Assembly: GCA_027492035.1 (NCBI GenBank)
Contig: JAOZFT010000015.1
Coordinates: 9,043-73,042 of the forward strand
Direction of reading: 5' to 3'
Origin: Thermoproteota archaeon
Lineage (GTDB): Archaea; Korarchaeota; JAOZGF01; JAOZFZ01
DNA length: 64,000 nucleotides
The notes beneath the pieces are model-generated. The model was not told where the DNA came from, searched no databases, and saw only the letters and a program-made list of their open reading frames with translations. Below are positions 11,006-53,564 of this stretch, in pieces. Numbering within the stretch: position 1 is the stretch's first letter; each line of letters begins with the position of its first letter. A program made the translations under genes and the position numbers.

Positions 11006-11016
11006 AAAGTAAAAAA

Positions 11017-11739: not shown

Positions 11740-11766
11740 TTTTAAACACCTTTAATAAATGCCCAA

Positions 11767-13074: not shown

Positions 13075-13173
13075 TTCTCCCCACCTTTGGTTAAGAATCT
13101 ACAAAAAAGGAAAAAGTTAAAAGCTGTTTTAAAGGAAAGAATGAAAAAATAAAAAAAGGAAAGGAGGGTTCGT

Positions 13174-20167: not shown

Positions 20168-20184
20168 GTTTTGGAGGTGTTTAA

Positions 20185-21189: not shown

Positions 21190-21323
21190 AAAAGGGTATC
21201 ACCAGGGAAAAATTTTTGAAAAAAGTTTAAAAAAATGCTGCTTCATTCCTTCCTAAAAATATCCTATAATTTTCTCACTCCCTATCTTTTAAGAAGGACC
21301 CTTTAAAGAGCGAGGCTTTTAAA

Positions 21324-22610
21324 GTGCCGAGATATGATGTAGTAGTGGTTGGGGCTGGAATTCTAGGTTTAACTTCAGCATATTACATAAAGAAGTGGAA
21401 CCCGGACAAATCCGTCTTAGTTATTGATAAGTTCGCTTCAGCTGGCCAAGGGAACACTGCAAAAAGTGAAGCTTCATTCAGAAACGTTTTCTCCTCCAAG
21501 ACAAATTTCTTTTTGGCTGACAGCTCTGTTGATTTTTATTTCCACCTCCAAAATGATCTAGGTTACAATCTTGGCTTGCATAAGATAGGATACTTATTTC
21601 TTTTAGGTGAAACAAGTTACAGAAAAGAAATAAATGTATTCAGAGAAGTTGAGAAGAAAGGGGTGGAAGTCGAGTACTTTGAAAAAGATGACTTGGAAAA
21701 AATGATTCCAGGCGTTGTTTTAGAATTCAGTAGCGAAGATGAGGAAGCTAAAAGACTTAACTTAGAAAACGTTGTGATGGGTGTTTTAGGTAAGAAATGC
21801 GGTTATTTAGACGCTGATTCGCTGGTGAAGTTTTACGAAGAAAGTTTTAAAAAAGAAGGAGGCCTTATTCAGTATAAAACATTGGTTACTGAATTAATTC
21901 TTGAACCCTTAGAAAAATACTGCATACCTGGTGAACCTTTTACGTGGCAAGAAGCAAAAATAATGGGAGTAAAAACAAATAGGGGGGAAATAAGGGCTGA
22001 CACTGTGGTAGTGGCAGCAGGTGCTTGGTCAAACATCCTCCTTGACCCTGTAGGAATAGATGCAAGGGTGAAACCTAAGAAAAGACAAATTTTTGTGTTG
22101 AAAGGGGAAAGCCTTGAGCCATTATTTAACATTAAAGGGTTCAACAAGGAGAGGGTTCTTCCATTTGTGGCTATGCCTACAGCAGAGATTTACCTCAGGC
22201 CATGTATAGAGGAGAAAACTTTCTGGGTTGGTTGCACAGATGAGTTGGGGAGGAAATTTGAGCTCGAAGAAGACCCTCAACCAGAAAAATACTTTTACAT
22301 TTACGGGATCAGGCTTGTACTGGAAAAGTACTTTCCCCATTTCAGGAACCTTAAACCGCTTAATGCATGGGCTGGTCAATACACACAAAACTCTTTAGAT
22401 GCAAACCCTTACATTTTTGAGGAGGCTGGTGTAATAACTGTTACAGGAGCAAGTGGAAGCGGAATACTTAAAGGAGATGCAATCGGCAGAGTAGCAGCTG
22501 CTTTATATATGGGTGAAGACTACGCCGAACTTTATGGCGGAAGGAAATTTAAAGTAAGTGACCTTGGAGTGGATGAAAGAAAGGCTGAAAAGGAAGAGTT
22601 AGTGCTCTAA
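21324..22610 (+). CDS. FAD-dependent oxidoreductase, DAO (D-amino-acid/sarcosine oxidase-like) family, paralog A
   Basis: VVVVGAGILGLTSAYYI dinucleotide-binding motif, 428 aa; clear paralog of 44622..45890. Confidence 0.75.
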   Translation: MPRYDVVVVGAGILGLTSAYYIKKWNPDKSVLVIDKFASAGQGNTAKSEASFRNVFSSKTNFFLADSSVDFYFHLQNDLGYNLGLHKIGYLFLLGETSYRKEINVFREVEKKGVEVEYFEKDDLEKMIPGVVLEFSSEDEEAKRLNLENVVMGVLGKKCGYLDADSLVKFYEESFKKEGGLIQYKTLVTELILEPLEKYCIPGEPFTWQEAKIMGVKTNRGEIRADTVVVAAGAWSNILLDPVGIDARVKPKKRQIFVLKGESLEPLFNIKGFNKERVLPFVAMPTAEIYLRPCIEEKTFWVGCTDELGRKFELEEDPQPEKYFYIYGIRLVLEKYFPHFRNLKPLNAWAGQYTQNSLDANPYIFEEAGVITVTGASGSGILKGDAIGRVAAALYMGEDYAELYGGRKFKVSDLGVDERKAEKEELVL

Positions 22611-22702
22611 TAAAAAAATTATTTATTTTCAAAAAGTTTGTTTACGAAGTTTTTTTGTAACCTACTCCTTTAAATTTTAACTTTTTAAGGAGTTAATTAG
22701 TT

Positions 22703-23992
22703 ATGAAAAAGACACTGATTAAAAATTTAGAGGGTGTACCCCAAACCAAACTTCTTTATTTTAAAGACCCTTACAAATTCAAGTTTAAGGCAGAAATTTT
22801 GAAAAAATGGGAAGTAAATGGGAAAATGTATATAGTACTGGACAAAACCTATTTCTATCCAGAAGGTGGAGGCCAGCCATCAGACAAAGGTTATGTCTCA
22901 GTTGAGGATAAAAAGTACTCGGTTGTGGATGTGCAGAAAATTAAGGGCGTCATTGTTCATGAGTGTGTCCCTTCAACTACTAAATCCTTAGAGGGAAAAG
23001 AGGCTTTAGGTGAGATTGATTCTAAAAGAAGAGTTTCTAATATGCGTTGCCACACAGCCTCACACATAGTGATGTCTGCTATCGAAAAAGTTAAGGGAAA
23101 GGCACAGTACGCAGGTTTTGGAATAGAGGAAGGTAAAGTTAGGTTAGATGTTCAAACTGAGAAAATAACACCCGAAGACTTAGAGGAAATAGAAAGGCGT
23201 TCAAACAAAGTTATTTACCAAGCCATACCTGTAAAAACATACTTTGTTTCAAGGAGTGAACTGGAAAAGATTCTGACCGGTCTCCACTGGGCAAAGGAAA
23301 TACCCCTAGAGGAAAAAGTGAGGATAGTAGAGATTGAGGGTTTCGACAAAAGTATCTGCAGCGGAACACATTGTTTAAACACTATTGAAATAGGGATGAT
23401 CAAAGTAATTAACAAGTTTAGGCTACAGAAGGGGGTTGAAAGGATAGAGTTCTTAGTTGGGGAGGAAGCAGTTAATGAAACCCTGGACTACATGAACAAA
23501 TTAAGTTCTTTAGCTAGGAAACTGAATATTTCAGCAGAAGAAATACCTAATGTCCTTATGAAGTTAAGGAATGAGAAAAAGAGAATGGAAAAAGAAATTG
23601 AAGAAATGAAGCAAGAGTTAACTGAATCAAAATTCAGAAACTTGATAAGTAAAAAAGAGCTGATAGGAACTGTGGAGGTAGTAACTGGGCTCTTAAGGGA
23701 AGCAAACGCCAAAACCCTGGGGAGACTGGTGAAAAAGGAGATAGAGGAAAACGAAAATTTATTCATTGCTGTGGGGGGATTAAGTGGAAAACCAGCATTA
23801 GTTGCTGGAGGTGGGTCTCAACTTATTAAGAAAGGATTAAACGTAAGTCAGGTAGTCAGTGAAGTATGTCAAACATTGGGTGGGAGAGGTGGAGGGTCGA
23901 AAAACATAGGTTTTGGTGGAGGTTTAACAAGTGAAAACATTGCGAAAGCCGTTGAAAAAGTGAAAGAAAGAATTGTGTCATTCATTAAATGA
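22703..23992 (+). CDS. alaX: AlaX-L type alanyl-tRNA editing protein (AlaRS editing domain plus C-terminal Gly-rich domain)
   Basis: HxxxH (HTASH) and CxxxH (CSGTHC) zinc-binding editing motifs of the Thr/Ala-tRNA synthetase second additional domain; C-terminal GGRGGGSKNIGFGGG as in the AlaRS C-terminal domain. Confidence 0.7.
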   Translation: MKKTLIKNLEGVPQTKLLYFKDPYKFKFKAEILKKWEVNGKMYIVLDKTYFYPEGGGQPSDKGYVSVEDKKYSVVDVQKIKGVIVHECVPSTTKSLEGKEALGEIDSKRRVSNMRCHTASHIVMSAIEKVKGKAQYAGFGIEEGKVRLDVQTEKITPEDLEEIERRSNKVIYQAIPVKTYFVSRSELEKILTGLHWAKEIPLEEKVRIVEIEGFDKSICSGTHCLNTIEIGMIKVINKFRLQKGVERIEFLVGEEAVNETLDYMNKLSSLARKLNISAEEIPNVLMKLRNEKKRMEKEIEEMKQELTESKFRNLISKKELIGTVEVVTGLLREANAKTLGRLVKKEIEENENLFIAVGGLSGKPALVAGGGSQLIKKGLNVSQVVSEVCQTLGGRGGGSKNIGFGGGLTSENIAKAVEKVKERIVSFIK

Positions 23993-24026
23993 ACGAGATT
24001 TGTTTCCTTACCCCAAAGTTCTCATT

Positions 24027-25019
24027 TTAAAGGGGGAAGTGTTTGCCTACCCCCTCTTGCAGAGACTTGGTGTAAGCATGTTTTGCTGTAACGGCATCTT
24101 GAACAGCTAACCCTACAGATTTCCAAAGGGTCACTTCATCCCTTGAAACTCTACCCTTTTTTAAACCAGTAACTACCTCCCCTAGTTCTGCGTAGACATG
24201 GCCTTCAGTTATTGCCCCCTCTTTTATGGGAATTATTATGTCTCCAGATTCCGCTAACACTGCCTCTTTTGAATCAACAAAAACTTTTGATTTCTTAACA
24301 GTTTCCGTATCCAACTCTCTTGCGTCTTTCCCCATCCAACCAATTGAGTTAACATGTGTTCCAGGTTTAATCCATTCCCCCTTTAAAACAGGTTTAACCG
24401 AGGTTGTGGCCACTATTAAAACATCACTTGGTTCAACTGCTTTTTCTGCAGTTTCCACGCTTCTGCCTTCAATCCTAAACCTTTCATTAATTTTTTCAGC
24501 TAACTCTTCAGCTTTGTCTTTCACAACATCATAAACTAAAACTGTTTCTATTTCCCTTACTTCTTTCACAGCCCACACTTGGGTAAATGCTTGTTTTCCA
24601 GCCCCTATTACCCCCAAAACCTTAGAGTCTTTGCGAGATAAATACTTAGTTGCTAAACCAGTTGCAGCACCTGTTCTTAAAGCAGTTATGTAACTTCCAT
24701 CCATAAAAGCTAAAGGTTCACCTGTTTCCGGGTTGTTAAGCTGGATAGTTGCATATATTGTAGGTAACTTATGTTTAACAATGTTATCGGGGTATACTGA
24801 AACAATTTTGACAGCTAAAGAGTTAAGGGGTTCAACGTAAGCCGGCATGTAAAGCATTGTGCCTCTATATTTTTTAATATTTATTATCGGCCTTAATGGA
24901 ACTTCCGTTTCTCCCTTAACAAATGCTGAAAAGGCCTTCTCCATTAAATCAATAACTTCTTTCATATCCAGAACTTTCTTTAAGTCTTTTTCAGTTAAAA
25001 GTAAAACCAAATATTTCAC
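24027..25019 (-). CDS. Ornithine cyclodeaminase/mu-crystallin family protein (OCD, archaeal alanine dehydrogenase or pyrroline-2-carboxylate reductase-like)
   Basis: 330 aa; Rossmann motif VIGAGKQA and family-typical layout. Confidence 0.8.
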   Translation of the reverse strand: MKYLVLLLTEKDLKKVLDMKEVIDLMEKAFSAFVKGETEVPLRPIINIKKYRGTMLYMPAYVEPLNSLAVKIVSVYPDNIVKHKLPTIYATIQLNNPETGEPLAFMDGSYITALRTGAATGLATKYLSRKDSKVLGVIGAGKQAFTQVWAVKEVREIETVLVYDVVKDKAEELAEKINERFRIEGRSVETAEKAVEPSDVLIVATTSVKPVLKGEWIKPGTHVNSIGWMGKDARELDTETVKKSKVFVDSKEAVLAESGDIIIPIKEGAITEGHVYAELGEVVTGLKKGRVSRDEVTLWKSVGLAVQDAVTAKHAYTKSLQEGVGKHFPL

Positions 25020-33795: not shown

Positions 33796-35331
33796 TTGGA
33801 GGCGCCTGAATTGCTCATGAATGGAAGAGAATATATAGAAAGTTTAAAGAAACTAAAACCCAAAATTTACTGTTTCGGTAAAAGGGTAGAAAGCGTAGTT
33901 AACCATCCAATGTTTAAACCTCACATAACCGCAGCTGCAATGACTTACGAGTTGGCACATGACCCAGAGTACAAAGAAATAATGACAGCTAAATCTCCTT
34001 TCATAAAAGACGTGGTTAATCGTTTCACTCACATACATCAATCAACTGATGATTTAGTTAAGAAAGTTAAAATGATGCGTCTCCTCGGCCAAAGAACAGG
34101 GACATGTTTCCAGAGATGCGTAGGGTTAGATGCATTAAATGCTCTTTATGTAGTAACTTATGAAATTGATAAGAAGCATGGAACAAACTACCATAAAAGA
34201 TTTATTGAATATCTTAAACATGTACAAAGGAAAGATTTAATGCCTGCCGGTGCAATGACGGACCCTAGAGGAGTAAGAAGCTTAACTCCGCATGAACAAC
34301 CTGATCCAGACTTATATGTTCATGTTGTTGAAAAAAATAAAGACGGAATAATAGTAAGAGGAGCGAAATGCCAAATAACAGGTACCGTGAACTCGCATGA
34401 AATAATTGCTTTACCAACTAGAACTATGAGAAAAGAAGATTCAGACTATTCAGTTGCATTCGCTGTTCCAGTGGATGAAAAAGGAATTACTTTAGTGTTT
34501 GCGAGGCAAACAAACGATACAAGGAGATTAGAAACTGAAATCGATGTAGGAAATGCTAAATATGGTGTAGTAGGAGGGGAAACCCTAATAATTTTCGATG
34601 ATGTTTTTGTTCCATGGGAAAGGGTTTTTATGTGCGGCGAGCACGAACACAGCTTAGAACTTGTTGAGGCCTTCAGCAGCCACCACAGATCAAACTACGG
34701 AGGCTGCAAAGTTGGAGTGGCTGACGTAGCTATAGGAGCCTGTAAATGGTTGGCTGATGCATACGGGTTAAGTAAAGTGTACCATATAAGAGACAAGTTA
34801 AGTGAAATGGTTCATTTAGCTGAAACATGTTGGAGCTGTTCTCTTGCATGTGCCTATGAGGGATATAAAACCAACTCCGGAGCCTACATGGTTAACACCT
34901 TGCTGGCGAACGTTGTCAAATTAAACATTACAAGAATGGTTTATGAATGGATGAGACTTGCTCAAGATATTACAGGTGGAACGGTGATAACTCTACCTTC
35001 TGAATTAGACTATAACCATCCTGAAATAGGGAAGTATATAGATAAGTTTTATCAAGTTAAAGAAGGGATTCCCACTGAGTACAGGCTTAGAATGACAAGG
35101 CTTGTTGAAAACATAGCTGTGGGTGCTGGTTTACCTGAGTCACTTCACGGCGCAGGATCTCCCGGGGCGCAAAAAGTCATGATTGAAAGAAGAACAAATT
35201 TAGAAGAAAAAAAATCCTTTGCAGAAGTGATTGCAGGCATAAAGGGTGATAAGTACTTCAGAAAGATATGGGGAGTTTCTGAAGATGAATTTTTCGCTAA
35301 ATTCCGTAAGAAAAGGAAGGAAAAGACGTAA
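33796..35331 (+). CDS. abfD: 4-hydroxybutyryl-CoA dehydratase/vinylacetyl-CoA isomerase (AbfD)-like, HpaB-family flavoenzyme
   Basis: 511 aa; long conserved blocks matching AbfD (YIESLKKLKPKIY, MTYELAHDPEY, IHQSTDDLVKKVKMMRLLGQRTG, GAMTDPRG, SHHRSNYGGCKVGV, HGAGSPGAQ). Confidence 0.8.
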   Translation: MEAPELLMNGREYIESLKKLKPKIYCFGKRVESVVNHPMFKPHITAAAMTYELAHDPEYKEIMTAKSPFIKDVVNRFTHIHQSTDDLVKKVKMMRLLGQRTGTCFQRCVGLDALNALYVVTYEIDKKHGTNYHKRFIEYLKHVQRKDLMPAGAMTDPRGVRSLTPHEQPDPDLYVHVVEKNKDGIIVRGAKCQITGTVNSHEIIALPTRTMRKEDSDYSVAFAVPVDEKGITLVFARQTNDTRRLETEIDVGNAKYGVVGGETLIIFDDVFVPWERVFMCGEHEHSLELVEAFSSHHRSNYGGCKVGVADVAIGACKWLADAYGLSKVYHIRDKLSEMVHLAETCWSCSLACAYEGYKTNSGAYMVNTLLANVVKLNITRMVYEWMRLAQDITGGTVITLPSELDYNHPEIGKYIDKFYQVKEGIPTEYRLRMTRLVENIAVGAGLPESLHGAGSPGAQKVMIERRTNLEEKKSFAEVIAGIKGDKYFRKIWGVSEDEFFAKFRKKRKEKT

Positions 35332-35358
35332 CTTTCTCCTAAAAAATGTGATCGTAAA

Positions 35359-36744
35359 GTGACGCATTACAACCAGTTACTGCAGCAAGAAATAAGGAAA
35401 TATAGGGAGAAAACAAGGAAATCAAGGAATCTTAATAACTTAGCACGGAGTCTCCTCCCGGGAGGAGACACAAGAACCGTAACTTACTTTAAACCTTATC
35501 CTCTTTATGTGAGAGAGGGATCAGGATACTTGGTTTGTGATGTTGACGGTAACAAATACATTGATTTCCTTAACAACTACACTTCACTGGTGCACGGCCA
35601 CCGTCACCCTAAAATTGTTGAGGCAATCAATAACCAACTTACCCATTTACAAGCAGTTCATGCCCCCACAGAAAAACAAATCGAGCTTGCTAAATTGATT
35701 TGTGAAAGATTTCCTTCAGTTGAAATGGTTAGGTTTATGAATTCAGGTACTGAAGCTACAATGAACGCTATAAGACTTGCAAGAGCTTATACAGGGAAAA
35801 AGAAAATAATGAAAGCTGAGGGGGGTTACCATGGAACCCATGACTTTGCAATGATAAGTGTGCATCCTCCTTCGGAGAAGTATGGCTCTCTAAACAACCC
35901 TGAATCTGTTCCAGAGGATAAAGGGATACCTAAAGCTGTACTCAAAAACGTTATAGTCTTCCCCTTCAACAATTTCGAAGTCACTGAGAAATTAATAAAG
36001 AGAAACAAGGAAGAGTTGGCAGCTTTAATAGTTGAACCTATAATGGGAACAGCAGGCATAATACCACCTGTAAAAGATTATTTAAAATTTCTCAGAGAAA
36101 TAACAATTGACAATGACGTTTTATTGGTTTTCGATGAAGTAATTACTGCCAGACTAAGTAAGGGAGGTGCTCAGGAATATTTTAAGGTAGAACCTGACTT
36201 AACAGCCTCAGGGAAAATGTTCGGTGGCGGAACCCCTATTGGCTTAGTTGGAGGAAAGGAAGAAATTATGCAACTTTACTCCCCTGAGAGGAAAGAATTC
36301 TTATCTCAATCAGGAACTTTTAACGCAAACCCTGTAACCATGGCCGCAGGTGTTGCAACACTTAAACTGTTAACAACCCAAGCTATAAAGAAAATAAACT
36401 CTTTAGGAGGATTCTTAAAGAAAAGAATTTCCAACTTATTTAGTGAATTTAGTGTTCAAATTAAGGTTACAGGTGTAGGCTCCCTCTTAAATATTCATTT
36501 CACAAATAAAGAAGTTTTAGATTACAGGAGTTCCTTAACAGCTGACAAGGATCTCCACTTCCTACTTTACTTATCTTTACTCAACAGGGGAATCTGGATA
36601 GCCCCAAGATTAATGGCTAACATTTCCACTCCCATGTCTAACAGGGAAACTGAAAAATTCCTTAAAACTTTAGGGGAAGTCTTAGTTTCTATTAAACCTG
36701 CAATTGAAGAGAAAGCTCCCCACTTAATAAACAAAGAAATGTAG
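35359..36744 (+). CDS. Class III PLP-dependent aminotransferase/aminomutase (GSA-aminomutase/GABA-aminotransferase-like), paralog of 11767..13074
   Basis: 461 aa; LPGGDTR, DVDGNKYIDF, LLVFDEVITA, and TASGKMFGGG containing the PLP lysine; GTG start. Confidence 0.8.
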   Translation: MTHYNQLLQQEIRKYREKTRKSRNLNNLARSLLPGGDTRTVTYFKPYPLYVREGSGYLVCDVDGNKYIDFLNNYTSLVHGHRHPKIVEAINNQLTHLQAVHAPTEKQIELAKLICERFPSVEMVRFMNSGTEATMNAIRLARAYTGKKKIMKAEGGYHGTHDFAMISVHPPSEKYGSLNNPESVPEDKGIPKAVLKNVIVFPFNNFEVTEKLIKRNKEELAALIVEPIMGTAGIIPPVKDYLKFLREITIDNDVLLVFDEVITARLSKGGAQEYFKVEPDLTASGKMFGGGTPIGLVGGKEEIMQLYSPERKEFLSQSGTFNANPVTMAAGVATLKLLTTQAIKKINSLGGFLKKRISNLFSEFSVQIKVTGVGSLLNIHFTNKEVLDYRSSLTADKDLHFLLYLSLLNRGIWIAPRLMANISTPMSNRETEKFLKTLGEVLVSIKPAIEEKAPHLINKEM

Positions 36745-36817: not shown

Positions 36818-37720
36818 TTAGGATATTCTGTATCTGGGATGGCTTTTTGGAAGTTTAATCTTTTCCTCTATTAACAATTGGCCGAAGGAAGCATCTACCA
36901 AACTTATTGCTGGGAACATGTATTCTGCGTCTCTTAATGGGCCGTACAATATGAAATCAGCTCCTAAAGCTGTGGGAAGTATACATGAAGAAGCTGTAGA
37001 AGCTATTACTCCTTCTTGGCTTATTTTCTTCTTCAACCCTTTCCACTGACTTACTGCATTATGGGCTCCGCAGCCGGCTGGAACACCGAATTTATCCTTT
37101 ATTTCAAATAAAGCCTTTGTAGCCATTCCAAGAGTTGGTATGTCCAGTACTGTTGTGTCTACCAGAATGTTTTCTAATCCAAGTTCCTCAGCCTTCTTTA
37201 TTAATTCCCCAGCTACTTCAACTCTTCCTTTTGAGGAAATTATTGCTTTCATTCCGTAAGTTAGTAACACTGCACTTTTTAAACCAACCTCTTTCACTTT
37301 GTTTAAAACAACTTCTTTTGTTTCTGGAGTTATTGAGTTCAGAATTATTCTAGACAACAAACCTGTTTCGTTTGAATACTCTAACCCTTCAACCATTGTT
37401 TCATTACTTAATCCATCTAAAAGCAAAGGAACATCTGAATTGTTAGCTGTGAAATCTAAAAATTTTTTCATAGCCTCAGGAGTTGTCCCTACAACATCCA
37501 GCATTAAAGGTAAACCTGTTAAATCAGACATTTCCAAGGCTTTACTTAACTCTTCCCCGGCTTCTTCTTCATTAAACACTCCCTTGTCAGGGTCATTAAC
37601 TACCCTATGTCCTCTGTAAAAGATACTTCCTATTAACACTGTCGGATTCTCCCCAGGATTTCCCCCCAACTTGATGCCTCCTATTTCAACAATTTTTTGT
37701 TTAGCTTTAAATTTCCACAT
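36818..37720 (-). CDS. mtrH: MtrH-like methyl-corrinoid:tetrahydromethanopterin/tetrahydrofolate methyltransferase
   Basis: 300 aa; GGNPGENPTVLIGSIFYRGHRVV ... LPLMLDVVGTTPEA ... DVPLLLDG ... GADFILYGP match the MtrH family blocks (GGQPGEYPT.L.GTIFY ..., LYGPI). Confidence 0.75.
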   Translation of the reverse strand: MWKFKAKQKIVEIGGIKLGGNPGENPTVLIGSIFYRGHRVVNDPDKGVFNEEEAGEELSKALEMSDLTGLPLMLDVVGTTPEAMKKFLDFTANNSDVPLLLDGLSNETMVEGLEYSNETGLLSRIILNSITPETKEVVLNKVKEVGLKSAVLLTYGMKAIISSKGRVEVAGELIKKAEELGLENILVDTTVLDIPTLGMATKALFEIKDKFGVPAGCGAHNAVSQWKGLKKKISQEGVIASTASSCILPTALGADFILYGPLRDAEYMFPAISLVDASFGQLLIEEKIKLPKSHPRYRIS

Positions 37721-37860
37721 CCAAAAACCCCTCTTCTACTCTTTCACTAAGTGAAGGAGAAAGTAAAGATTGAACCTAAAAAAACAAATACAGTTCTTTT
37801 TTTAGAAAAACTTTAGGAAGGTGCTGTTGCGAAAAAAGGTAAAAAAGCTAAAGAATTAAT

Positions 37861-39318
37861 TTAGTGAACAACTTCTTTAGCTGCACTTTTGATCACTTTG
37901 TCTATTTCATCTACTACATCCTTGGGTAAAGGTGTAACTTCGTGTTCCTTCAATATTTTTCTGGCTTTCTCTCTAGCCTTCTTCGTCAAGTCTTTGCCTC
38001 CTTCACTTATCCACTTCCTCCAAGAGGATTTGCTTAATAGATCAGTTAGGTAATGTTCCTGTTTAAAAAGTTTCCTTGTGTGTTTAAGGCTTAAATAACT
38101 TCCTGCATGACCTGCTTCCTTTATAGCTTCAACTGCTAAAGTTTCTTCATTTACTTCAACTCCCTGCAACAATCTTTTAATCATCCCTATTAATTCATCA
38201 CAAATCACAATGAAATCAGCGCTGCACAGCAAACCTGAGTCCATGTAGCCTATATCATGGATAAGGTTTTGGCCACTTAAAGCAGCTGCTGCTATATAAA
38301 GCGCCGCTTCAGCAGCTGCTTGTGCATCAGTTAATTTAGAATCTGTACACCCTGTAGTTCCCCAAAGGGGAATATCGTAGTAGTGAGACATCTGGGCGAG
38401 CATGACAGCCATCAATAAAGTTGACGCTGTTGTATAAGAAGTTACAGCGTATTTCATATCTAGAACCAAAGGCACCCCACCGTAAATGAAGGGGGTACCT
38501 GGGTTTAACAATTGAATTATAACGTTTCCTCCCAAGGATTCGGCGCTTGTTTGAACCACTGAACCTGCAAGAGTGACAGGGGCAGTTGCCCCGCTTTGTG
38601 TGCAAGGGGCCCAAACAATTGGCAATCCCTTCTTAACCCATTCAAATAATGCCTCAATGTAATCCCTGCCGAAAATTAATGGGGATTGTGGTTCATCGTA
38701 TAAGGTAACTATTGGTTTCCTTCTCAGTTCTTCTTCACCCCCGGCTACGAGTTCAGCTATTTTTATTTGCAGTTTCGTTAACTCTGCACCATGGTAACTG
38801 TACATTACAAAATGTTTTTCGGTATTAAGCAGTACAGCTTTTTCTTCATATAACCCCATTAAGCCAGAAGGAGCGTCGCTAGCTGTACCTGAACCCATTG
38901 CAAAGTCAATATTTTCTAATGCATCCCCTAACCTAGTTAGTTCCTCCATGTCCTTGAATGTGCACCTTCTCCTTTCACCTGTTTCAAGGTCTAAAACATA
39001 GGTTTGACCGCTTCCTGTACCAAAATATGTCCTTAACCCTTCAAGAACAAAGTCGTATTTTGGGTTCCTACCGTATAACCTAATTGTTTTGGGGGCCTTT
39101 TTAATTGATTCTTCAACTAAGTACTGAGGTATCTTAGCGATTTTAGTTTTAAAATCAACGTCAGCTCCTGCATCCTTAAGGAGTTTTAAAGCCCCTTCAT
39201 GTTCAATTTTTATTCCGTGCTGTTCCAGAACTTTCAACACTGCCAAATGTATATCGTATATTTGGTCATTAGTTAAAATTTTGAGCTGCCCCCCCTTTAA
39301 TCCACCCCTCATTCTCAT
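37861..39318 (-). CDS. MttB-superfamily methyltransferase (non-pyrrolysine), paralog 2
   Basis: 485 aa uninterrupted ORF, about 50-60% identical over long blocks to paralogs 1 and 3; no in-frame TAG; stop overlaps the corrinoid gene start by 4 nt. Confidence 0.85.
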   Translation of the reverse strand: MRMRGGLKGGQLKILTNDQIYDIHLAVLKVLEQHGIKIEHEGALKLLKDAGADVDFKTKIAKIPQYLVEESIKKAPKTIRLYGRNPKYDFVLEGLRTYFGTGSGQTYVLDLETGERRRCTFKDMEELTRLGDALENIDFAMGSGTASDAPSGLMGLYEEKAVLLNTEKHFVMYSYHGAELTKLQIKIAELVAGGEEELRRKPIVTLYDEPQSPLIFGRDYIEALFEWVKKGLPIVWAPCTQSGATAPVTLAGSVVQTSAESLGGNVIIQLLNPGTPFIYGGVPLVLDMKYAVTSYTTASTLLMAVMLAQMSHYYDIPLWGTTGCTDSKLTDAQAAAEAALYIAAAALSGQNLIHDIGYMDSGLLCSADFIVICDELIGMIKRLLQGVEVNEETLAVEAIKEAGHAGSYLSLKHTRKLFKQEHYLTDLLSKSSWRKWISEGGKDLTKKAREKARKILKEHEVTPLPKDVVDEIDKVIKSAAKEVVH

Positions 39319-39971
39319 CCCTTCCCAATTAACCTTTTAGCTACTTCAACTGCTTCTGTAGCATCTGCTCCATGTCCATCAGCCCCTATTTCCTCAGCCC
39401 ATTCAGGACTTGTAGGGGCTCCTCCAACTATAACTTTGTACTTATCCCTTAACCCCCTCTTTTTAAGTTCCTCGATGAGTTTCTTCTGGACAGGCATTGT
39501 AGTGGTTAATAATGCAGAGGCACCTATTATGTCAGCACCGTTTTCTTCAGCTGCTTTAATGAAGTTTTCAGGAGGTTGGTCGTTGCCTATCTGAATCACC
39601 CTGAAACCTGCTGCCTGAAGCATTGAAGCAACTATCCTCTGCCCTATATCATGTATATCCCCCTCAACTGTACCTATCACAATTGTTCCTACGTATTCAG
39701 CTTTCTCCTTTGATTTCTCCAATGCAGGCCTCAAAACAGTCATAACACTGTTCATAACCTCAGCTGACCCAACTAAATCCATCAAAAATATTTCTCCCCT
39801 CCCAAACTTATCCCCTATCTCTTTCAATTTTTTTGATAATGCATTCACAAGTTCAACAGGGCTCATGCCACGTTTTTCAAGTAATTCCTTAGCTAACTCG
39901 TCAGCACCCTCCGGTTCAGCTTCATCAAGTCTCTTCAACAACTCGTTAAGCACATCTTCTTTAGTGGACAC
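39315..39971 (-). CDS. Corrinoid (B12-binding) protein, MttC/MtbC/MtgC-like
   Basis: 218 aa; B12-binding-N helical cap plus Rossmann B12-binding domain with the DxHxxG motif (GDIHDIGQRIV). Confidence 0.85.
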   Translation of the reverse strand: MSTKEDVLNELLKRLDEAEPEGADELAKELLEKRGMSPVELVNALSKKLKEIGDKFGRGEIFLMDLVGSAEVMNSVMTVLRPALEKSKEKAEYVGTIVIGTVEGDIHDIGQRIVASMLQAAGFRVIQIGNDQPPENFIKAAEENGADIIGASALLTTTMPVQKKLIEELKKRGLRDKYKVIVGGAPTSPEWAEEIGADGHGADATEAVEVAKRLIGKG

Positions 39972-40167
39972 AAGTTTACACCTCCCAGTATTTTTAAAAC
40001 AAAAGGAAGCTTTTTCTATTATAAATTTTTCTATTTTATTGATTTATTTAGAAAAATTGTAAGGAAAAATAAGGAATATTTTGAAAAATGAAACACAAAT
40101 AACCCTAATCTAACCTTGCTTTCCATATGATAAAACTTTTAAACTTGAAAAATTTGGGTTAGATTAT

Positions 40168-40923
40168 TCATAAATAAATTCTTGTCGGGTCCAGTTCCCT
40201 TAAAACCCTAATTTCAGCTTTTTTTGGTTCAGGAGTTGTCTTAAGCTCCTCTGAAACTTTTAGCTTCCACCCTGTATTTTCTTGCACTTCTTCAAGTGTC
40301 ACTTTCGGATGAAGTTTTTCTACAACCAATTCCCCGTATCTATTGTGAAGAGATAACACGCATAAATCAGTTATTACTTTTATTTCTCTCACTTCTTTAT
40401 TTGTCTCTAAACTTTCCTCTTCTTTTTTCAGCTGTTTCCCTGGACTCGTTAAGAAATCAAGCTTGTTAACAAATCTCCTTTTTTGATGAGGCGTAATTAT
40501 TAATATTTTCTTCACCAAATGAGCTATGTCGCAGGCTCCTCCACTTCCAGGCAATCTAACTTTTGGTTTCCTGTAATCCCCTATCACAGTTGTGTTTATG
40601 TTTCCAAACTTATCAATTTGTGCCCCTCCTAAAAAACCAACATCCACACGTCCAGGTTGAAGGTAGTAACCGAAGACTTCAAACATGGAACAGACACTTT
40701 CTGAATTGGTCACTATGCAAGGGTCTCCTATTGAAAGAGGAAGTCTTGAAGGCTTAGCCCCTACTACTCCTGATTCATAGATCATTACCAACTTAGGGGC
40801 GTGAAGCCTTTTAGCTAAGTTACATGCAAGGTTGGGTAAACCCACCCCCACCAAAACTGTTTCTCCGTTTCTAAGTTCTCTTGCGGCTGTAACAACCATT
40901 AATTCGTTTCTGCCGTAATCCAT
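40168..40923 (-). CDS. Family I CoA-transferase subunit B (glutaconate/3-oxoacid CoA-transferase beta-like)
   Basis: 251 aa; catalytic-glutamate region MIYESGVVG, GGAQIDKFGN, GSGGACD typical of beta subunits. Confidence 0.75.
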   Translation of the reverse strand: MDYGRNELMVVTAARELRNGETVLVGVGLPNLACNLAKRLHAPKLVMIYESGVVGAKPSRLPLSIGDPCIVTNSESVCSMFEVFGYYLQPGRVDVGFLGGAQIDKFGNINTTVIGDYRKPKVRLPGSGGACDIAHLVKKILIITPHQKRRFVNKLDFLTSPGKQLKKEEESLETNKEVREIKVITDLCVLSLHNRYGELVVEKLHPKVTLEEVQENTGWKLKVSEELKTTPEPKKAEIRVLRELDPTRIYL

Positions 40924-40936
40924 TTTTCCTTCACCT

Positions 40937-41851
40937 TTAGAGATAGAGCCCGTAATCGACCGGTAAACTATAGAATCTCTTAGGTTGAAGTTTCATTATT
41001 TTTTCAACACCTAACTTTTTCACGTATTCCCTCCTATCATTCACACTGTAAACCCATTCCTCCAGATATTTTTCCACTAATTCAGGTTCTCTTGAAATCT
41101 TATCCCATTCTAGATAGAAGTCATTGTCTCTGTCGTAGTACCCTTGGACATAGGATGGATGAGCTGCCCATGGTTCCTCCACAACCGCATCAACCACTAA
41201 ATTGTGTATTAGTGTCCTGTTAGGGTCTCTCCTAATAACAGCTTCATCAACTATTTCTTCAACACTTAAAATTACCTTTTTCGCTGCGTATGCTGCTTCT
41301 TTTTGGTCACCTATTATGCCCCAAATTTGAGCATTCCCCTCCTTATCTGATCTCTGGGCATGAACGATTGCAACATCCGGTTTTAAAGCAGGTACGACAC
41401 TTACTTTTTCATGCGTAAACGGACACTTAATAAACTTAATGTTTGGGTTGACTTTCGGTAAATCTGAGTAAATGTTTGACCTTAAAGGGATGAAAGGTAA
41501 ATTCAGAGCTCCAGCATGGATTCTTGCCACCATACCAAAGTGGGTGTACTCCTCAATTTCTATTTTGTTAGGTACACCCTGCTCAACTGCTCTTCTGAAA
41601 CATCTTAAAGAACCTACTCCAGGGTTTCCAGCCCAGCTGAAAACAACCTTTTGTGCACAGCCGGCTGCGATCATTTGGTCAAGGATCAAGTCTGGAGTCG
41701 GTCTGCAAAGTGTTAATCTCTTCTTTTTTTGCCTAATTATTTCATGGCCTGCTGAAAAGTTTATGAGGTGGGTAAAACCTGCAATGTAGACAACGTCTCC
41801 GTCTTTAACAAACTTCTTTATTGCTTCCTTCATGTCCATGACTTTATCCAT
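40937..41851 (-). CDS. Family I CoA-transferase subunit A (glutaconate CoA-transferase alpha-like)
   Basis: 304 aa; N-terminal AIKKFVKDGDVVYIAGF and overall alpha-subunit pattern; adjacent to the beta subunit. Confidence 0.75.
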   Translation of the reverse strand: MDKVMDMKEAIKKFVKDGDVVYIAGFTHLINFSAGHEIIRQKKKRLTLCRPTPDLILDQMIAAGCAQKVVFSWAGNPGVGSLRCFRRAVEQGVPNKIEIEEYTHFGMVARIHAGALNLPFIPLRSNIYSDLPKVNPNIKFIKCPFTHEKVSVVPALKPDVAIVHAQRSDKEGNAQIWGIIGDQKEAAYAAKKVILSVEEIVDEAVIRRDPNRTLIHNLVVDAVVEEPWAAHPSYVQGYYDRDNDFYLEWDKISREPELVEKYLEEWVYSVNDRREYVKKLGVEKIMKLQPKRFYSLPVDYGLYL

Positions 41852-48190: not shown

Positions 48191-50083
48191 CTAAATTATT
48201 TCGGCTACTTTATATGGTAACTCATTGAAATTGTCAAGGAAAGTGTAGTTTCCATTTGTGGCCTTTGACAAGTCTTTACAAAGATCTACACTTTCTTTTC
48301 TTCCACCTCCAATTCCTACCTGTACAACATTTAGTTTATCAAATTTTTTAGCCACATGTCTTGGATCTTCCCCTCTCGTAACCCAACCATCCGTTATGAG
48401 GATTCCTAATTTTTCACTTATATCTGCTCTTATGTTGGCTTCATCTAACTCATCTAAACCCTTCTTTAAAGCCGTTTCTATGTTTGTCAACCCGCCTGTT
48501 TTTAAATTCAAAATTTTCCTTATCACTTCAGTTAGTTCTTCCTGTTCAAACACAGATTTTACCACTTCAGGTTTATCCTTAAAAGATATAACTGAGCAGT
48601 AATCATCTTTAAATTTAATAAGTAACGTAGCTGCTGCAATAGCTGTCAAAACTATTTTTTCCCTTTGCATGGAATTGCTTGTATCCAGCATCACAGCCAC
48701 TCCAACTTTCCTCGGAATTTTCTGCATACACACTATGTCTTGGTAATCAATCACTTTTTTACCTATTAAGTTTTCAAAGGTTAAATCTTCATCTATTTCT
48801 TCCAATCCAGGAACAAATTCACTTCTTTCTTTACGTACTCTTCTAATCCTTTTTCCAGCTATTCTATGAGCAATCTCTAAAACCATTTTTATAATTAAAT
48901 CCTCGATTTTCCTTTTTGTTACCGCATCTAAAGCTCTTTCACTAAGTAAAGAATAAATTTTTATAACTGGCCATTCATAACCTTCTTTTTCAGCTTTCAA
49001 AACCAAATTTAAAACTTCATCATCACTTAATTTCTCAATAAAACCCGGTTTTTCAATTGCTTCCTTAACAGCTTCAATTATTTTTGTGTTCCGTTCCCGG
49101 AAAGAAACCCCTTGTTTTTTCCTATTTTCCACAATGTTTTGTCCTTGTTTAAGTTTATTGCTATTGACTCCCCAGTTTTCATTTTTAGGTGTGAAGGGGT
49201 TACTACCCCAGTTAAGTTCTTTAAGAACAGAATAGACTATTTCTTTTATTATCTCGCTCAATTTCTTTTCCGTCTTACCTATTAAAGCAACTTTTGTGTA
49301 CATTGCTGAAACAGCTAAGTTTACGATTAGTTCAGGGTTTAAGTCAGGGTTTCTTCTATTTTTCACTAGTTCGACAAAATCTACAGCTCCCCTAATTGAG
49401 GCTCCATGTCTAAATTCAGGATGGACCCTTGTTTTTCTCATAATCTTGACAGCAAGTGTAAGTACTTTTCGGTCTTCGAACCCTGTTTCCTTCCTGACAA
49501 TATCTATTTCCTCTTCTTCGCTTTGGTAACTTAACCCTATCCACACGAATCGGTCTCTAAGTGCTTCACTTAACCTGCTTGTGCCAACGTACTCTTGGGG
49601 ATTTTGTGTAGCTATAACCAGAAAACCTTCCTTAGCCTTTATTACACCTATTTTTGGAATGATAATTTGTTTTTCATCCATTGCAGGAAGCAAAACATTC
49701 TGTGTTCCCTCAGGCATTCTGTTAAGTTCATTTATGAAAAGAACACCACCCTCTATCATTGCTTGAGTCAAGGGGCCTGGTATGAAGGACTTCCAGCTGT
49801 ACCCTTTAGATAAGACAATTGGAGGATCAAACCAACCTGTTAATTTGTGTTCAGTGTACCTTTCATCGCCATCCACCCGGTAAATTTTTCTCCCTAAGAA
49901 ATTGGCTACAGCTGCAGCTAAAGTTGTTTTCCCTATACCTACAGGGCCTTCAAGTAAAACATGTTTATTTGAAAGTGCAGCATTTAAGATGTTTTTCAGT
50001 TCCTCTTCTCTACCAATAATCCTATATTTCCTCTTTATCTTCTTTATGGCTTCCTCTAAATTGAACATTAGACTTCCCTGCAA
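48191..50083 (-). CDS. MoxR-type AAA+ ATPase fused to a C-terminal von Willebrand factor A (VWA) domain
   Basis: N-terminal MoxR/ChlI-like AAA (GPVGIGKTTLA, FINELNR, sensor region); C-terminal VWA with MIDAS motif VMLDTSNSM; 630 aa. Confidence 0.75.
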   Translation of the reverse strand: MQGSLMFNLEEAIKKIKRKYRIIGREEELKNILNAALSNKHVLLEGPVGIGKTTLAAAVANFLGRKIYRVDGDERYTEHKLTGWFDPPIVLSKGYSWKSFIPGPLTQAMIEGGVLFINELNRMPEGTQNVLLPAMDEKQIIIPKIGVIKAKEGFLVIATQNPQEYVGTSRLSEALRDRFVWIGLSYQSEEEEIDIVRKETGFEDRKVLTLAVKIMRKTRVHPEFRHGASIRGAVDFVELVKNRRNPDLNPELIVNLAVSAMYTKVALIGKTEKKLSEIIKEIVYSVLKELNWGSNPFTPKNENWGVNSNKLKQGQNIVENRKKQGVSFRERNTKIIEAVKEAIEKPGFIEKLSDDEVLNLVLKAEKEGYEWPVIKIYSLLSERALDAVTKRKIEDLIIKMVLEIAHRIAGKRIRRVRKERSEFVPGLEEIDEDLTFENLIGKKVIDYQDIVCMQKIPRKVGVAVMLDTSNSMQREKIVLTAIAAATLLIKFKDDYCSVISFKDKPEVVKSVFEQEELTEVIRKILNLKTGGLTNIETALKKGLDELDEANIRADISEKLGILITDGWVTRGEDPRHVAKKFDKLNVVQVGIGGGRKESVDLCKDLSKATNGNYTFLDNFNELPYKVAEII

Positions 50084-52194: not shown

Positions 52195-52434
52195 TTACTC
52201 TTTCACCTCTCGGGTTCCCCCCTCCTGTAAAAATTTTAAATAATTGATGTTATTTTAGGAATAAGTGCCAAAAAATATTTTTAAATTTAACTTTTTTCTC
52301 TCTCCTAAGGATCAGTTAAGAAGATTTCTGGAAGAATCTTAATTGGAGGGTAGCCGTGAAAATTAAAGAATAGAAATTGAAGGGAAAAACTTAATTAAGA
52401 CAACTTCTGCATTTCCCCCAATTTTTTGCTTTTT

Positions 52435-53340
52435 GTTTTTAAACTATGTTTTCCATGCCTTTAAGGTCATAGAGAATTAAGTTCAGGTTTTCAATTTTTA
52501 TTTTTTCTTTTCCTTGGATTTCTCTTGTTATTAAGCAATAGGTTTTCTCTTTTATTTCAATTTCTTCAGCTTTGGCTTTAAGTTTTTTCAGGATTCTTAT
52601 TGTTTCTAACGGTTTCAGGACCCCTCATTTTACCTCTGCCAATATTGCTTTATCTTTGGATTTGTTAATGGCTAACAAATTTATTTCAGCAGGATTTCCT
52701 CTTTTTGTTTTCCACCATTACCCCCAATCTTGGTTATTGTGAAAGATAGATTCCTGTTCTCTAAAAGAAACTTTTTTAGCTACTTCCTTGAAAATCTGTC
52801 TCATATAATGCGAGTATCCCCTCTTAATATTCTTTAAAAGGCCCCCTCCCCTATTAAGTCCTTATTTGGATAATGTAACGGAACCAGAAATTGAAGTAAT
52901 TATCTTTGAGTTTGTAGAGCCTTTTCTTAGCGACTGGTTTTTCTAGAACAGGGGTTTCATAAGAAACTATCTCTAAGGTTCGGAGTGTTTCTAGATAACG
53001 TGTAACAGCAGCTCTGTCCAGGCCTGTTGTTTCAGCTATTTCATTCACTTTTCTTCAGCCTTCAGCCACAGCCTTAAATATCAACTTGTAATTCCTTGTT
53101 TCCCTTAACTCTTGTCTGAGAAGATTTTCAGCTTCTTCATACGGCTCCCCTCAAGAGAAGCCTATCTACATTCTCCCAAAATGTGAGATTTGGTTTTAAC
53201 TTAACTAAATATGCAGATATTCCCCCCATGGAACCGTATACACGCAAAAACATCTGAGTAACTATATCCAAGCACAAATTCCCTTGTAGCTTACGTTGTT
53301 CTTGTCTTGATTTTCTTCTTCATCCACCAATTTACGTAAC
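52435..53340 (-). pseudogene. Degraded remnant of an archaeal ATPase/DUF234-type (HTH plus FWF-motif) gene
   Basis: Minus-strand fragments with family-like sequence: GEPYEEAENLLRQELRETRNYKLIFKAVAEG, then an in-frame TGA, then VNEIAETTGLDRAAVTRYLETLRTLEIV...YKLKDNYFNFWFRYI (DUF234-like FWFR motif), then a separate fragment ...ILKKLKAKAEEIEIKEKTYCLITREIQGKEKIKIENLNLILYDLKGMENIV. No intact long ORF on either strand. Confidence 0.4.
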
Positions 53341-53564
53341 ATGTGTCACGATAATTATTTTAAACTATTTTACTAAATTATTAACAGTATTAGCGAGAAA
53401 AGGTAAGTAAAAGAAATGAAAAGGTTTGATAGAGGATGGGTCGTAATTATTTAAAGGATTTTTTTAAAATAAATTTTTTAAATCTAAATGGAGGATTGCG
53501 TCCTTAATTTTTCAGAAAAAGTGTTGTAGAGGTTTTTAAATTGAAAAAGTTGAAAGGGAGAAGG

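Follow-up and report, generated by a model that had tools for sequence, protein, structure and literature searches.

The closest described counterparts of the genes analysed here are corrinoid-dependent systems made up of a substrate:corrinoid methyltransferase (MT1), a corrinoid carrier protein and a methylcorrinoid methyltransferase (MT2). The genes lie on the minus strand at positions 36,818 to 39,971 of a 64-kb stretch of the archaeal contig JAOZFT010000015.1 (hereafter the window) and encode a predicted carrier (CorA), an MttB-superfamily MT1 (MttB2) and an MtrH-like MT2 (Table 1). In the MtgB-MtgC-MtgA system of Desulfitobacterium hafniense, the same three families are found in one locus and the methyl group is likewise delivered to a pterin, in that case from glycine betaine to tetrahydrofolate (THF); MtgA is named a methylcorrinoid:THF methyltransferase (PDB 6sj8 naming, NCBIfam NF047990). 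The window differs in its archaeal host, its likely use of tetrahydromethanopterin (H4MPT), the presence of several MT1 paralogues and the absence of three of the four betaine residues, and its proteins score far under the cut-offs of the MtgA and MtgC NCBIfam models.

In Eubacterium limosum, the MT1 enzymes share the corrinoid protein MtqC and the MT2 MtqA. This quaternary-amine system, with the MttB-family MT1 enzymes MtpB, MtcB, MtyB and MthB (PMC13080624), resembles the arrangement that we infer for the window, where several MT1 enzymes would feed few carriers and these a single MT2. It is, however, bacterial and THF-dependent and acts on acidic quaternary amines via a conserved Arg, a position at which the window MT1 enzymes carry Trp or Phe. 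The MtoABCD system of Methermicoccus shengliensis and Archaeoglobus fulgidus is archaeal, and its stand-alone MtrH-like MT2 (MtoA) delivers to H4MPT and not to coenzyme M (CoM). The non-methanogen A. fulgidus uses it to supply the Wood-Ljungdahl pathway, and a similar role is proposed for the window. MtoB, in contrast, is an O-demethylase of a different family, and the Mto cluster has an activase, MtoD, whereas the window is without a RACo-type gene.

Clusters of mtrH, mttB and mttC with the same gene content and without pyrrolysine have been published for Culexarchaeia (PMC9723716) and for the Asgard lineages Atabeyarchaeia and Freyarchaeia (10.1101/2023.11.21.568159), where they were read in the same way, as feeding methyl groups into the Wood-Ljungdahl pathway of archaea free of methyl-coenzyme M reductase (MCR). 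The co-location is therefore already published, and the window is an example in a further lineage, Korarchaeia. A corrinoid activation protein belongs to the Culexarchaeia clusters, whereas the window is an island with multiple MT1 genes and a pyrrolysine-free MtmB homologue. The Culexarchaeia and Asgard accounts assume quaternary-amine substrates without residue-level support. As an incremental step, the locus provides a concrete, well-delimited korarchaeal case of how MCR-free archaea might feed the methyl groups of methylated amines into the H4MPT-type Wood-Ljungdahl pathway.

Two methanogen systems share single components. MT1 and corrinoid protein of the Methanosarcina MttB-MttC-MtbA system are full-length homologues, and the window enzymes have an aromatic residue where MttB has Tyr; they differ in carrying Cys and not pyrrolysine, in relying on an MtrH-family and not a URO-D-family MT2, in the delivery to a pterin and not to CoM, and in belonging to a non-methanogen. 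MtrH of the Mtr complex shares PF02007 and the pterin-binding TIM-barrel methyltransferase fold with the window MT2, which nevertheless stays under the equivalog cut-off, has Mtr-complex MtrH as the weakest of its PDB matches and has no mtrA-G genes adjacent.

Table 1. Features of the methyltransferase locus and of the surrounding island, with positions in the window.
Feature	Length	Position	Strand	Basis and remarks
Corrinoid (cobalamin-binding) carrier, MttC/MtgC-like (CorA)	218 aa	39315..39971	-	GTG start; Pfam and PDB match
Predicted pyrrolysine-free MttB-superfamily substrate:corrinoid methyltransferase (MT1, MttB2)	485 aa	37861..39318	-	Pfam MTTB
Predicted stand-alone MtrH/MtgA/MtoA-family methylcorrinoid:pterin methyltransferase (MT2)	300 aa	36818..37720	-	Pfam MtrH
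Spacer between MT1 and MT2 genes; possible archaeal terminator or attenuation point	140 nt	37721..37860	-	AT-rich, GC 0.31; oligo-T tracts
Upstream region of CorA; probable promoter region	196 nt	39972..40167	-	GC 0.22; TATA-like elements
Second MttB-family MT1 paralogue (MttB1)	488 aa	18701..20167	+	Pfam MTTB 323 bits; TIGR02369 480 bits
Third MttB-family MT1 paralogue (MttB3)	488 aa	45919..47385	-	Pfam MTTB 304 bits; TIGR02369 431 bits
Pyrrolysine-free MtmB-family methyltransferase, fourth MT1 candidate	461 aa	50139..51524	-	Pfam MtmB 327.5 bits
Second corrinoid protein (CorB)	221 aa	51529..52194	-	B12-binding_2 and B12-binding; TIGR02370 220.3 bits, above the 215.3 cut-off
MoxR-class AAA+ ATPase fused to a VWA domain; candidate activase or chaperone		48191..50083	-	Pfam AAA_5/AAA_3 and VWA; role putative
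DUF2284 Cys-rich protein, probably Fe-S; candidate electron-transfer partner	206 aa	47559..48179	-	Pfam DUF2284 147 bits; role putative

Assignment of the Encoded Proteins

The three open reading frames (ORFs) are located exactly where a first-pass annotation, made from the DNA sequence alone, had placed them, and the roles of MT1, corrinoid carrier and MT2 assigned there were borne out by Pfam, NCBIfam and PDB homology for all three proteins. CorA matched the Pfam families B12-binding_2 (E 7e-14) and B12-binding (E 3e-30), and its best PDB match was MttC of Methanosarcina barkeri (7xcn_M), with 180 bits from end to end. The best NCBIfam models, MtgC (203 bits, cut-off 310) and pyl_corrinoid (193 bits), both remained below cut-off. 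The His-on motif D105-I-H107-D-I-G110 as well as S152-A-L and G183-G184 are present. With a four-helix cap, a Rossmann B12 domain and the DxHxxG motif, and encoded beside MttB2, CorA has the marks of a cognate carrier.

MttB2 matched Pfam MTTB (PF06253) with 328 bits over residues 11-478, and full-length PDB matches were obtained with M. barkeri MttB (7xcl, 246 bits) and D. hafniense MtgB (2qne, 228 bits). Its ORF is uninterrupted and has no in-frame TAG; Pyl334 of 7xcl aligns to Cys324. Both marks of a genuine MttB are thus missing, namely a UAG-encoded pyrrolysine and a TIGR02369 score above the cut-off (446.5 bits compared to 525).

For the MtrH-like protein, Pfam MtrH (PF02007) gave 255 bits. 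It passed the model NF002142 ‘MtrH family protein’ (314 bits, cut-off 287) and failed the mtrH equivalog TIGR01114 (215.3 bits, cut-off 271.4); its 242 bits against the MtgA model (NF047990) are far below the cut-off. Its PDB scores ranked 8z9u_B (deposited as MtrH; 248 bits) before MtgA 6sj8 (206 bits) and MtrH of the Mtr complex (9qtp_o, 170 bits). Residues D75, D102, N128, D188/D193 and N221 are shared with MtgA and invariant in the family alignment. The closest relatives, at approximately 50-55% identity, are nearly all MtrH-like proteins of Bathyarchaeia, and mtrA-G genes were found to be absent from the window ORFs. The passed family model, the failed equivalog and the PDB ranking place the protein with stand-alone homologues, as the first-pass annotation had required of it, and its prediction as a stand-alone MT2 outside any Mtr complex is well supported.

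From these assignments, we consider it likely that the trio constitutes a corrinoid-dependent methyl relay of the MtgB-MtgC-MtgA or Mto type. MttB2 would take a methyl group off an N-methylated substrate and load it onto the adjacent CorA in its Co(I) form, and the MtrH-like MT2 would pass it from CH3-Co(III) to a reduced pterin, most likely H4MPT. Methyl-H4MPT would then be condensed with CO by CO dehydrogenase/acetyl-CoA synthase (CODH/ACS) to yield acetyl-CoA, or be partly oxidised via the methyl branch. The trio would form one arm of a larger island, with the single MT2 probably shared by all MT1/carrier pairs. On the strength of characterised homologues and of the host's published gene content, we infer in which direction the methyl group moves, that H4MPT accepts it and that the MT2 is shared; the substrate class is likewise inferred.

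Corrinoid methyl transfers are chemically reversible, and the sequence does not fix their direction. A biosynthetic flow, from methyl-H4MPT through MtrH and the corrinoid protein to the methylation of an amine, is nonetheless very unlikely, since all characterised MttB-family systems are catabolic demethylases and the island sits among transport and catabolic genes, including a Liv ABC transporter, aminotransferases, indolepyruvate-type (IOR) and aldehyde:ferredoxin (AOR) oxidoreductases, CoA-transferases and an ADP-forming acetyl-CoA synthetase. As the island is embedded in genes of amino-acid fermentation, the demethylated carbon skeleton would probably be fermented too. Amino-acid fermentation yields reduced ferredoxin, which would make condensation with CO at CODH/ACS to acetyl-CoA, and from there to acetate and ATP, the more natural fate of the methyl group.

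Host and Methyl Acceptor

The window originates from a deep-branching marine lineage of Korarchaeia, the population of the metagenome-assembled genome (MAG) INS_M21_B37 from the Jan Mayen vents. MttB2 is identical to a protein on JAOZGG010000023.1 (GCA_027491775.1), a contig assigned to INS_M21_B37. Over 21.4 kb, this contig and the window share 99.84% identity, so that the window, part of a 73.5-kb contig, stems from a conspecific assembly. INS_M21_B37 (GC 36.6%, 1.8 Mb, 93.6% complete; class Korarchaeia, no order assigned) was obtained from sediment of the Bruse vent field at ~49-74 °C and is among the 50 Korarchaeia MAGs reconstructed by Vulcano et al. 2023 from vents of the Arctic Mid-Ocean Ridge (PMC10667645). 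Among species-representative genomes, Thermoproteota archaeon Flange_M5_B4 (JAOZFL01) is the nearest, with an MtrH-like protein of 83% identity; JAOZFL01 has been described as a genus-level clade of Korarchaeota (PMC12787533). A 2.7-kb record binned in a second MAG (GCA_027491625.1) is 99.75% identical to positions 37673..40418 of the window, comprising CorA and MttB2. If accession prefixes run in BioSample order, that MAG would belong to a different genus (QMVU01, GC 44%), which is likely due to mis-binning or to a wrong mapping of the prefix to the bin.

The deep-branching Korarchaeia lineages were reported to possess the H4MPT-type Wood-Ljungdahl pathway in full, and the tables for INS_M21_B37 list Mer (327 aa, TIGR03555 E 4.5e-126), CdhA and CdhE (PMC10667645). 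The C1 enzymes for H4MPT and the CODH/ACS that the first-pass annotation had named as checks are thus published for this population. Vulcano et al. scored MtrH, MttB and MtmB as present, going no further than presence or absence for these genes, and discussed an oxidative Wood-Ljungdahl pathway (PMC10667645). According to published surveys, mcrABG in Korarchaeia occurs only in a different, terrestrial clade, and mtrH is the only Mtr-complex gene in most korarchaeal MAGs. This agrees with the expectation of a non-methanogen host lacking mcrABG, and a host equipped with both a full Mtr complex and Mcr is not what these surveys describe.

The delivery of the methyl group from MT1 via the carrier and MT2 to a pterin and not to CoM, as envisaged in the first-pass annotation, is well supported by homology to the characterised MtoA and MtgA. 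MtoA demethylates CH3-Co(III)-MtoC with THF and not with CoM (PMC8630106). Transfer to CoM was first proposed for MtrH of Bathyarchaeia and Methanomethylicia; the proposal was repeated for Korarchaeia (PMC10667645) and considered for Asgard archaea (10.1101/2023.11.21.568159). For the present protein, we regard it as extremely improbable: apart from the inactivity of MtoA with CoM and the restriction of mcrABG to another clade, known corrinoid:CoM transfer uses MtaA/MtbA of the URO-D family, and none was encoded in the window. The Pfam scan on which this rests covered the window ORFs of at least 110 aa and gave no match to URO-D (PF01208), in line with the first-pass annotation; the unscanned ORFs of at least 110 aa all overlap scanned genes on the opposite strand.

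THF as the acceptor in place of H4MPT is unlikely. It has in its favour that the bacterial homologue MtgA uses THF, that MtoA was assayed with THF only (PMC8630106) and that some related archaea hold parts of both C1 branches (PMC9723716). The documented C1 pathway of the MAG is, however, of the H4MPT type (mer, mtd, mch, ftr, fwd), and the MtrH-like protein has its nearest relatives among archaea, in Bathyarchaeia whose pathways are of the H4MPT type.

Entry into the Wood-Ljungdahl pathway had been linked to a ‘Mer-like reductase’ encoded at 9932..11005. The pathway itself is present elsewhere in the genome, but the link through this ORF fails: it scored 136 bits against NF002619 (cut-off 276) and 132 bits against TIGR03555 (cut-off 349), and the Mer of the MAG is a different protein of 327 aa. 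The ORF encodes an F420/LLM-family protein, of which Mer is the nearest solved relative, weakly, with ~106 bits (PDB). It is located on the minus strand in an operon (9932..14574) that it shares with an Amdase (arylmalonate-decarboxylase)/racemase-family gene and with genes for a class-III aminotransferase and a solute-binding protein of the Liv type.

Active-Site Residues and Substrate of MttB2

Residues Y97, R312, H348 and F356 are the experimentally validated glycine-betaine-binding residues of D. hafniense MtgB (DhMtgB; Picking et al. 2026). The numbering offset for DhMtgB was validated by all four reference residues matching. At the equivalent positions, MttB2 has S103, W319, H354 and G362, respectively; only H348 of the four is kept, and the residue pattern of MtgB is thus absent. 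R312 binds the acidic group of the substrate and is conserved in all characterised pyrrolysine-free members, i.e., MtgB, MtcB, MtpB, MtyB and MthB (PMC13080624). Genuine MttB has Tyr at the equivalent position.

The R312 and pyrrolysine positions were surveyed in the 120 closest homologues of MttB2 (P0001-P0120), which include proteins of archaea, Firmicutes and Chloroflexi. The R312-equivalent residue is aromatic in 106 of the 120 (Phe in 47, Trp in 41 and Tyr in 18) and Arg in 13, and the position equivalent to pyrrolysine is occupied by Cys in 71. The proteins form a large uncharacterised clade with a predicted pocket nearer to that of MttB (Tyr and pyrrolysine) than to that of MtgB (Arg and Leu). 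No report of an aromatic residue in place of R312 combined with Cys at the pyrrolysine position was found in the literature searched.

The residues of the predicted pocket speak against glycine betaine, and against acidic quaternary amines in general, as substrates of MttB2. That the enzyme is nevertheless of the MtgB type, or uses another acidic quaternary amine, is the usual assumption for a pyrrolysine-free MttB and finds backing in several observations: all characterised pyrrolysine-free members use such substrates (PMC13080624), MtgC is the best NCBIfam model for CorA, H348 is kept and the neighbourhood is one of amino-acid catabolism. With three of the four validated residues exchanged (Y97 to Ser, R312 to Trp, F356 to Gly), an aromatic residue prevailing at the R312 position among the closest homologues, and CorA far under the MtgC cut-off, we judge this assignment quite improbable. 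With an aromatic residue in place of the carboxylate-binding Arg and Cys at the pyrrolysine position, the MttB2 clade might conceivably act on non-acidic methylamines, perhaps on trimethylamine, and do so in the absence of pyrrolysine. At residue level, the annotation shortcut by which a pyrrolysine-free MttB is taken for a glycine-betaine-like quaternary-amine enzyme fails for this large archaeal and bacterial clade.

The Bathyarchaeia O-demethylase termed ‘MtgB’ (Yu et al. 2023) was considered as a relative of the MT1 enzymes and set aside, as it comprises ~300 aa and is not of the MttB family; only the MT2 and the corrinoid protein of that system are homologous to those of the window.

One MT2 in an Island of MT1 Genes

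Within 34 kb, the window contains four MT1 genes, two corrinoid-protein genes and one MT2 gene (Table 1), and this clustering of corrinoid-system genes is not due to chance. MttB1 is 52% identical to MttB2, with Ala at the pyrrolysine position and Phe at the R312 position; MttB3 is 57% identical to MttB2, with Cys and Trp at these positions. The MtmB-like protein matched MtmB in the PDB (1l2q) with 216 bits, Pyl202 of the ‘GVXGP’ motif aligning to Met in an uninterrupted ORF; it was not until 2026 that a function was first published for any MtmB free of pyrrolysine (tetramethylammonium/choline; PMC13044021). CorB, which shares 44% identity with CorA, has the motif DIHELG. Its gene opens a second module, in which it is followed after 4 nt by the MtmB-like gene, after a further 55 nt by the AAA+/VWA gene, after 11 nt by the DUF2284 gene and after 173 nt by MttB3. 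Given four MT1 enzymes, two corrinoid proteins and one MT2, the MtrH-like enzyme probably serves all of them.

Partners of the MT2 gene were surveyed within 8 kb of 80 MtrH-like loci from species-representative genomes, many of them on short contigs. A corrinoid-protein gene was found in 17 loci, a full-length MttB-like gene in 5, an MtmB-like gene in 3 and a RACo-type activase directly beside MtrH in 22. At least one of these four gene types is present in 27 of the 80 loci; any corrinoid-system partner is present in 29, which adds a sister-genus locus with a partial MttB-like gene (L003) and a Bathyarchaeia locus with AAA-VWA and DUF2284 genes (L046). In three Bathyarchaeia loci (L005 5948..10532, L028 5947..10534 and L048 306..4888), the genes for CorB, the MtmB-like protein, MtrH and RACo are adjacent in this order, and CorB and the MtmB-like protein are 56-62% identical to those of the window. 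Judging from these loci, the MtrH clade seems to be partnered often by MtmB-like/CorB.

Gene Arrangement and Transcription

The 4-nt ATGA overlap between CorA and MttB2 that had been noted is present in the sequence (GGG ATG A GA ATG AGG), the TGA stop codon overlapping the ATG. This ATG is probably not used as the MttB2 start, since the ATG 6 nt downstream fits the homologues better. The public gene call places the start there, at 39312, resulting in a protein of 483 aa, a 2-nt spacer and no overlap, and the N-termini of MttB2 homologues (‘MRxG..’) agree better with it. Under either start, the coupling of the two genes is tight. Of the window's 35 same-strand junctions, four overlap and another 17 have gaps of ≤30 nt; an ATGA overlap is thus ordinary in this setting.

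Upstream of CorA, a Shine-Dalgarno sequence, GGGAGGTG, was found 7 nt ahead of the GTG start, with TATA-like elements TTTATAA and TTTAAAAATA ~53 and ~27 nt upstream of the GTG. The 140-nt gap between MttB2 and the MtrH-like gene is as originally noted. It contains runs of T6, T6, T5 and T7, the first 15 nt past the MttB2 stop codon; a TATA-like element was not found in it by a simple pattern, and a Shine-Dalgarno-like GAGGGG precedes the MtrH-like ATG. Aligned MtrH upstream regions of the window and L003 revealed no conserved promoter motif. A scan of 36.6-40.3 kb for promoters and terminators of the bacterial type gave chance-level counts, and such a scan is not applicable to an archaeal host. 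The tRNA and Rfam scans of the window gave no matches.

Several observations weigh against the proposed relay. In the sister-genus locus L003, MtrH is divergent from and adjoins an orthologue of MttB1 (79% identity) and has its own upstream region, so that the order corrinoid protein-MttB2-MtrH is not kept. The closest homologues of MttB2 (58-60% identity, from Bathyarchaeia) lie in an arrangement of corrinoid protein, MttB and MFS transporter with no MtrH nearby; these loci are flanked by DAO/proline-dehydrogenase-type genes, and the pairing of corrinoid protein and MttB is conserved in them. Oligo-T tracts stand between the MT1 and MT2 genes of the window. A tblastn search of the 64-kb window with a RACo protein (from L086) revealed no RamA/RACo activase; an ATP-dependent reductive activase is needed for sustained turnover, and its gene may be located elsewhere in the genome. 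H4MPT and THF as acceptors are not distinguishable from sequence, and Vulcano et al., who weighed full oxidation, described no complete redox-balance route for growth on methyl groups in these Korarchaeia (PMC10667645).

These points bear most directly on the earlier description of the trio as a complete module in one unit. The adjacency of the three families stands; to call them complete and one unit goes too far, given the missing activase, the single MtrH for four MT1 enzymes and two corrinoid proteins, the T tracts and the different order in L003. With the oligo-T tracts and the deviating order in the sister genus, co-transcription of the trio is unproven. The three genes could still form one co-transcribed, self-contained operon for a single substrate, with MtrH serving only the CorA/MttB2 pair, as they are adjacent on the same strand, CorA and MttB2 are tightly coupled, the 140-nt gap lacks a recognisable TATA-like element and similar three-gene clusters are known elsewhere. 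We hold this to be somewhat unlikely, because T tracts follow straight after the MttB2 stop codon, the window pairs its only MtrH with three more MT1 genes and a further corrinoid protein, MtrH of L003 is separately oriented, and the closest MttB2 homologues are without an adjacent MtrH. The T tracts and the gene orders in L003 and Bathyarchaeia instead point to MtrH as a semi-independent gene serving several MT1/carrier pairs, whose transcription is probably, at least in part, separate.

Candidate Activase Genes

The AAA+/VWA and DUF2284 genes between the MtmB-like gene and MttB3 are a specific candidate for the ‘missing’ activating enzyme. The PDB relatives of the AAA+/VWA protein are midasin AAA domains, NorQ and CbbQ. 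The DUF2284 protein has seven invariant Cys residues, arranged in Cx4Cx8CPP and CxxCxxCx8C. Its AlphaFold2 model (m2c920ff5ae9f) reached a pLDDT of 92.8, and the best fold matches, which are weak (E 2e-3, TM 0.41), were QueG and reductive dehalogenases (cobalamin/[4Fe-4S]), followed by nitroreductases. A profile search gave no sequence-level support for a likeness to QueG or the dehalogenases, and no solved relative by sequence was found.

The order CorB, MtmB-like, AAA/VWA and DUF2284 recurs in another Korarchaeia MAG (JAOZFU01, L089), and the AAA/VWA and DUF2284 genes adjoin MtrH in the Bathyarchaeia locus L046. The contexts of DUF2284 homologues are mixed, being linked to methyltransferases in L089, L046 and L090/91 and unlinked in L092 and L093; a metagenome scan for DUF2284 loci returned only two loci. 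On this basis, we tentatively propose, as an outside chance, that the pair might replace RamA/RACo, either in the ATP-dependent reductive reactivation of the corrinoid proteins or in their loading with cofactor. In a Bathyarchaeia enrichment culture, too, the activating enzyme reportedly escaped identification (Yu et al. 2023), and this lends the proposal relevance beyond the window.

Neighbouring Genes

Genes of amino-acid catabolism are interspersed throughout the island. In addition to those named above, in which the transporter is of the Liv type and the aminotransferases belong to class III, they encode proline-racemase-family, DAO-type flavoenzyme and OCD-family proteins, 2,4-diaminopentanoate dehydrogenase, a 4-hydroxybutyryl-CoA-dehydratase-like protein and a thiolase.

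Beginning 18 nt past MttB1 (window 18701..25019), a proline-racemase-family gene (NF010576 511 bits, just under the cut-off) and a DAO-type flavoenzyme are found, with an OCD/mu-crystallin-family gene nearby. The set resembles proline/hydroxyproline or N-methylproline metabolism, and proline betaine as the substrate of MttB1 was kept as a guess only. On the plus strand and convergent with MtrH, positions 33796..36744 encode the 4-hydroxybutyryl-CoA-dehydratase-like protein (HpaB family; C104x3C108 and H297x6C304, motifs like those of Fe-S ligands) and a class-III aminotransferase; the synteny of these two genes with MtrH is kept in the sister genus (L003 2359..5297), with identities of 72-81%. 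Combined with the CoA-transferase genes at 40168..41851, they resemble a set for the fermentation of gamma-aminobutyrate (GABA)/4-hydroxybutyrate. A conversion of gamma-butyrobetaine to GABA, to which these neighbours would lend themselves, was likewise kept as speculation only. Both guesses are speculative because the pairing of MT1 genes with their neighbours is shuffled in the sister genus and the pocket is without the carboxylate-binding Arg.

The only long unannotated gap (52195..53540) follows the CorB gene on the map; it spans 1.3 kb, is AT-rich and has no ORF exceeding 64 aa. The ORF of that length, at 52854..53048, resembles part of a winged-helix DNA-binding protein and may be what is left of a gene.

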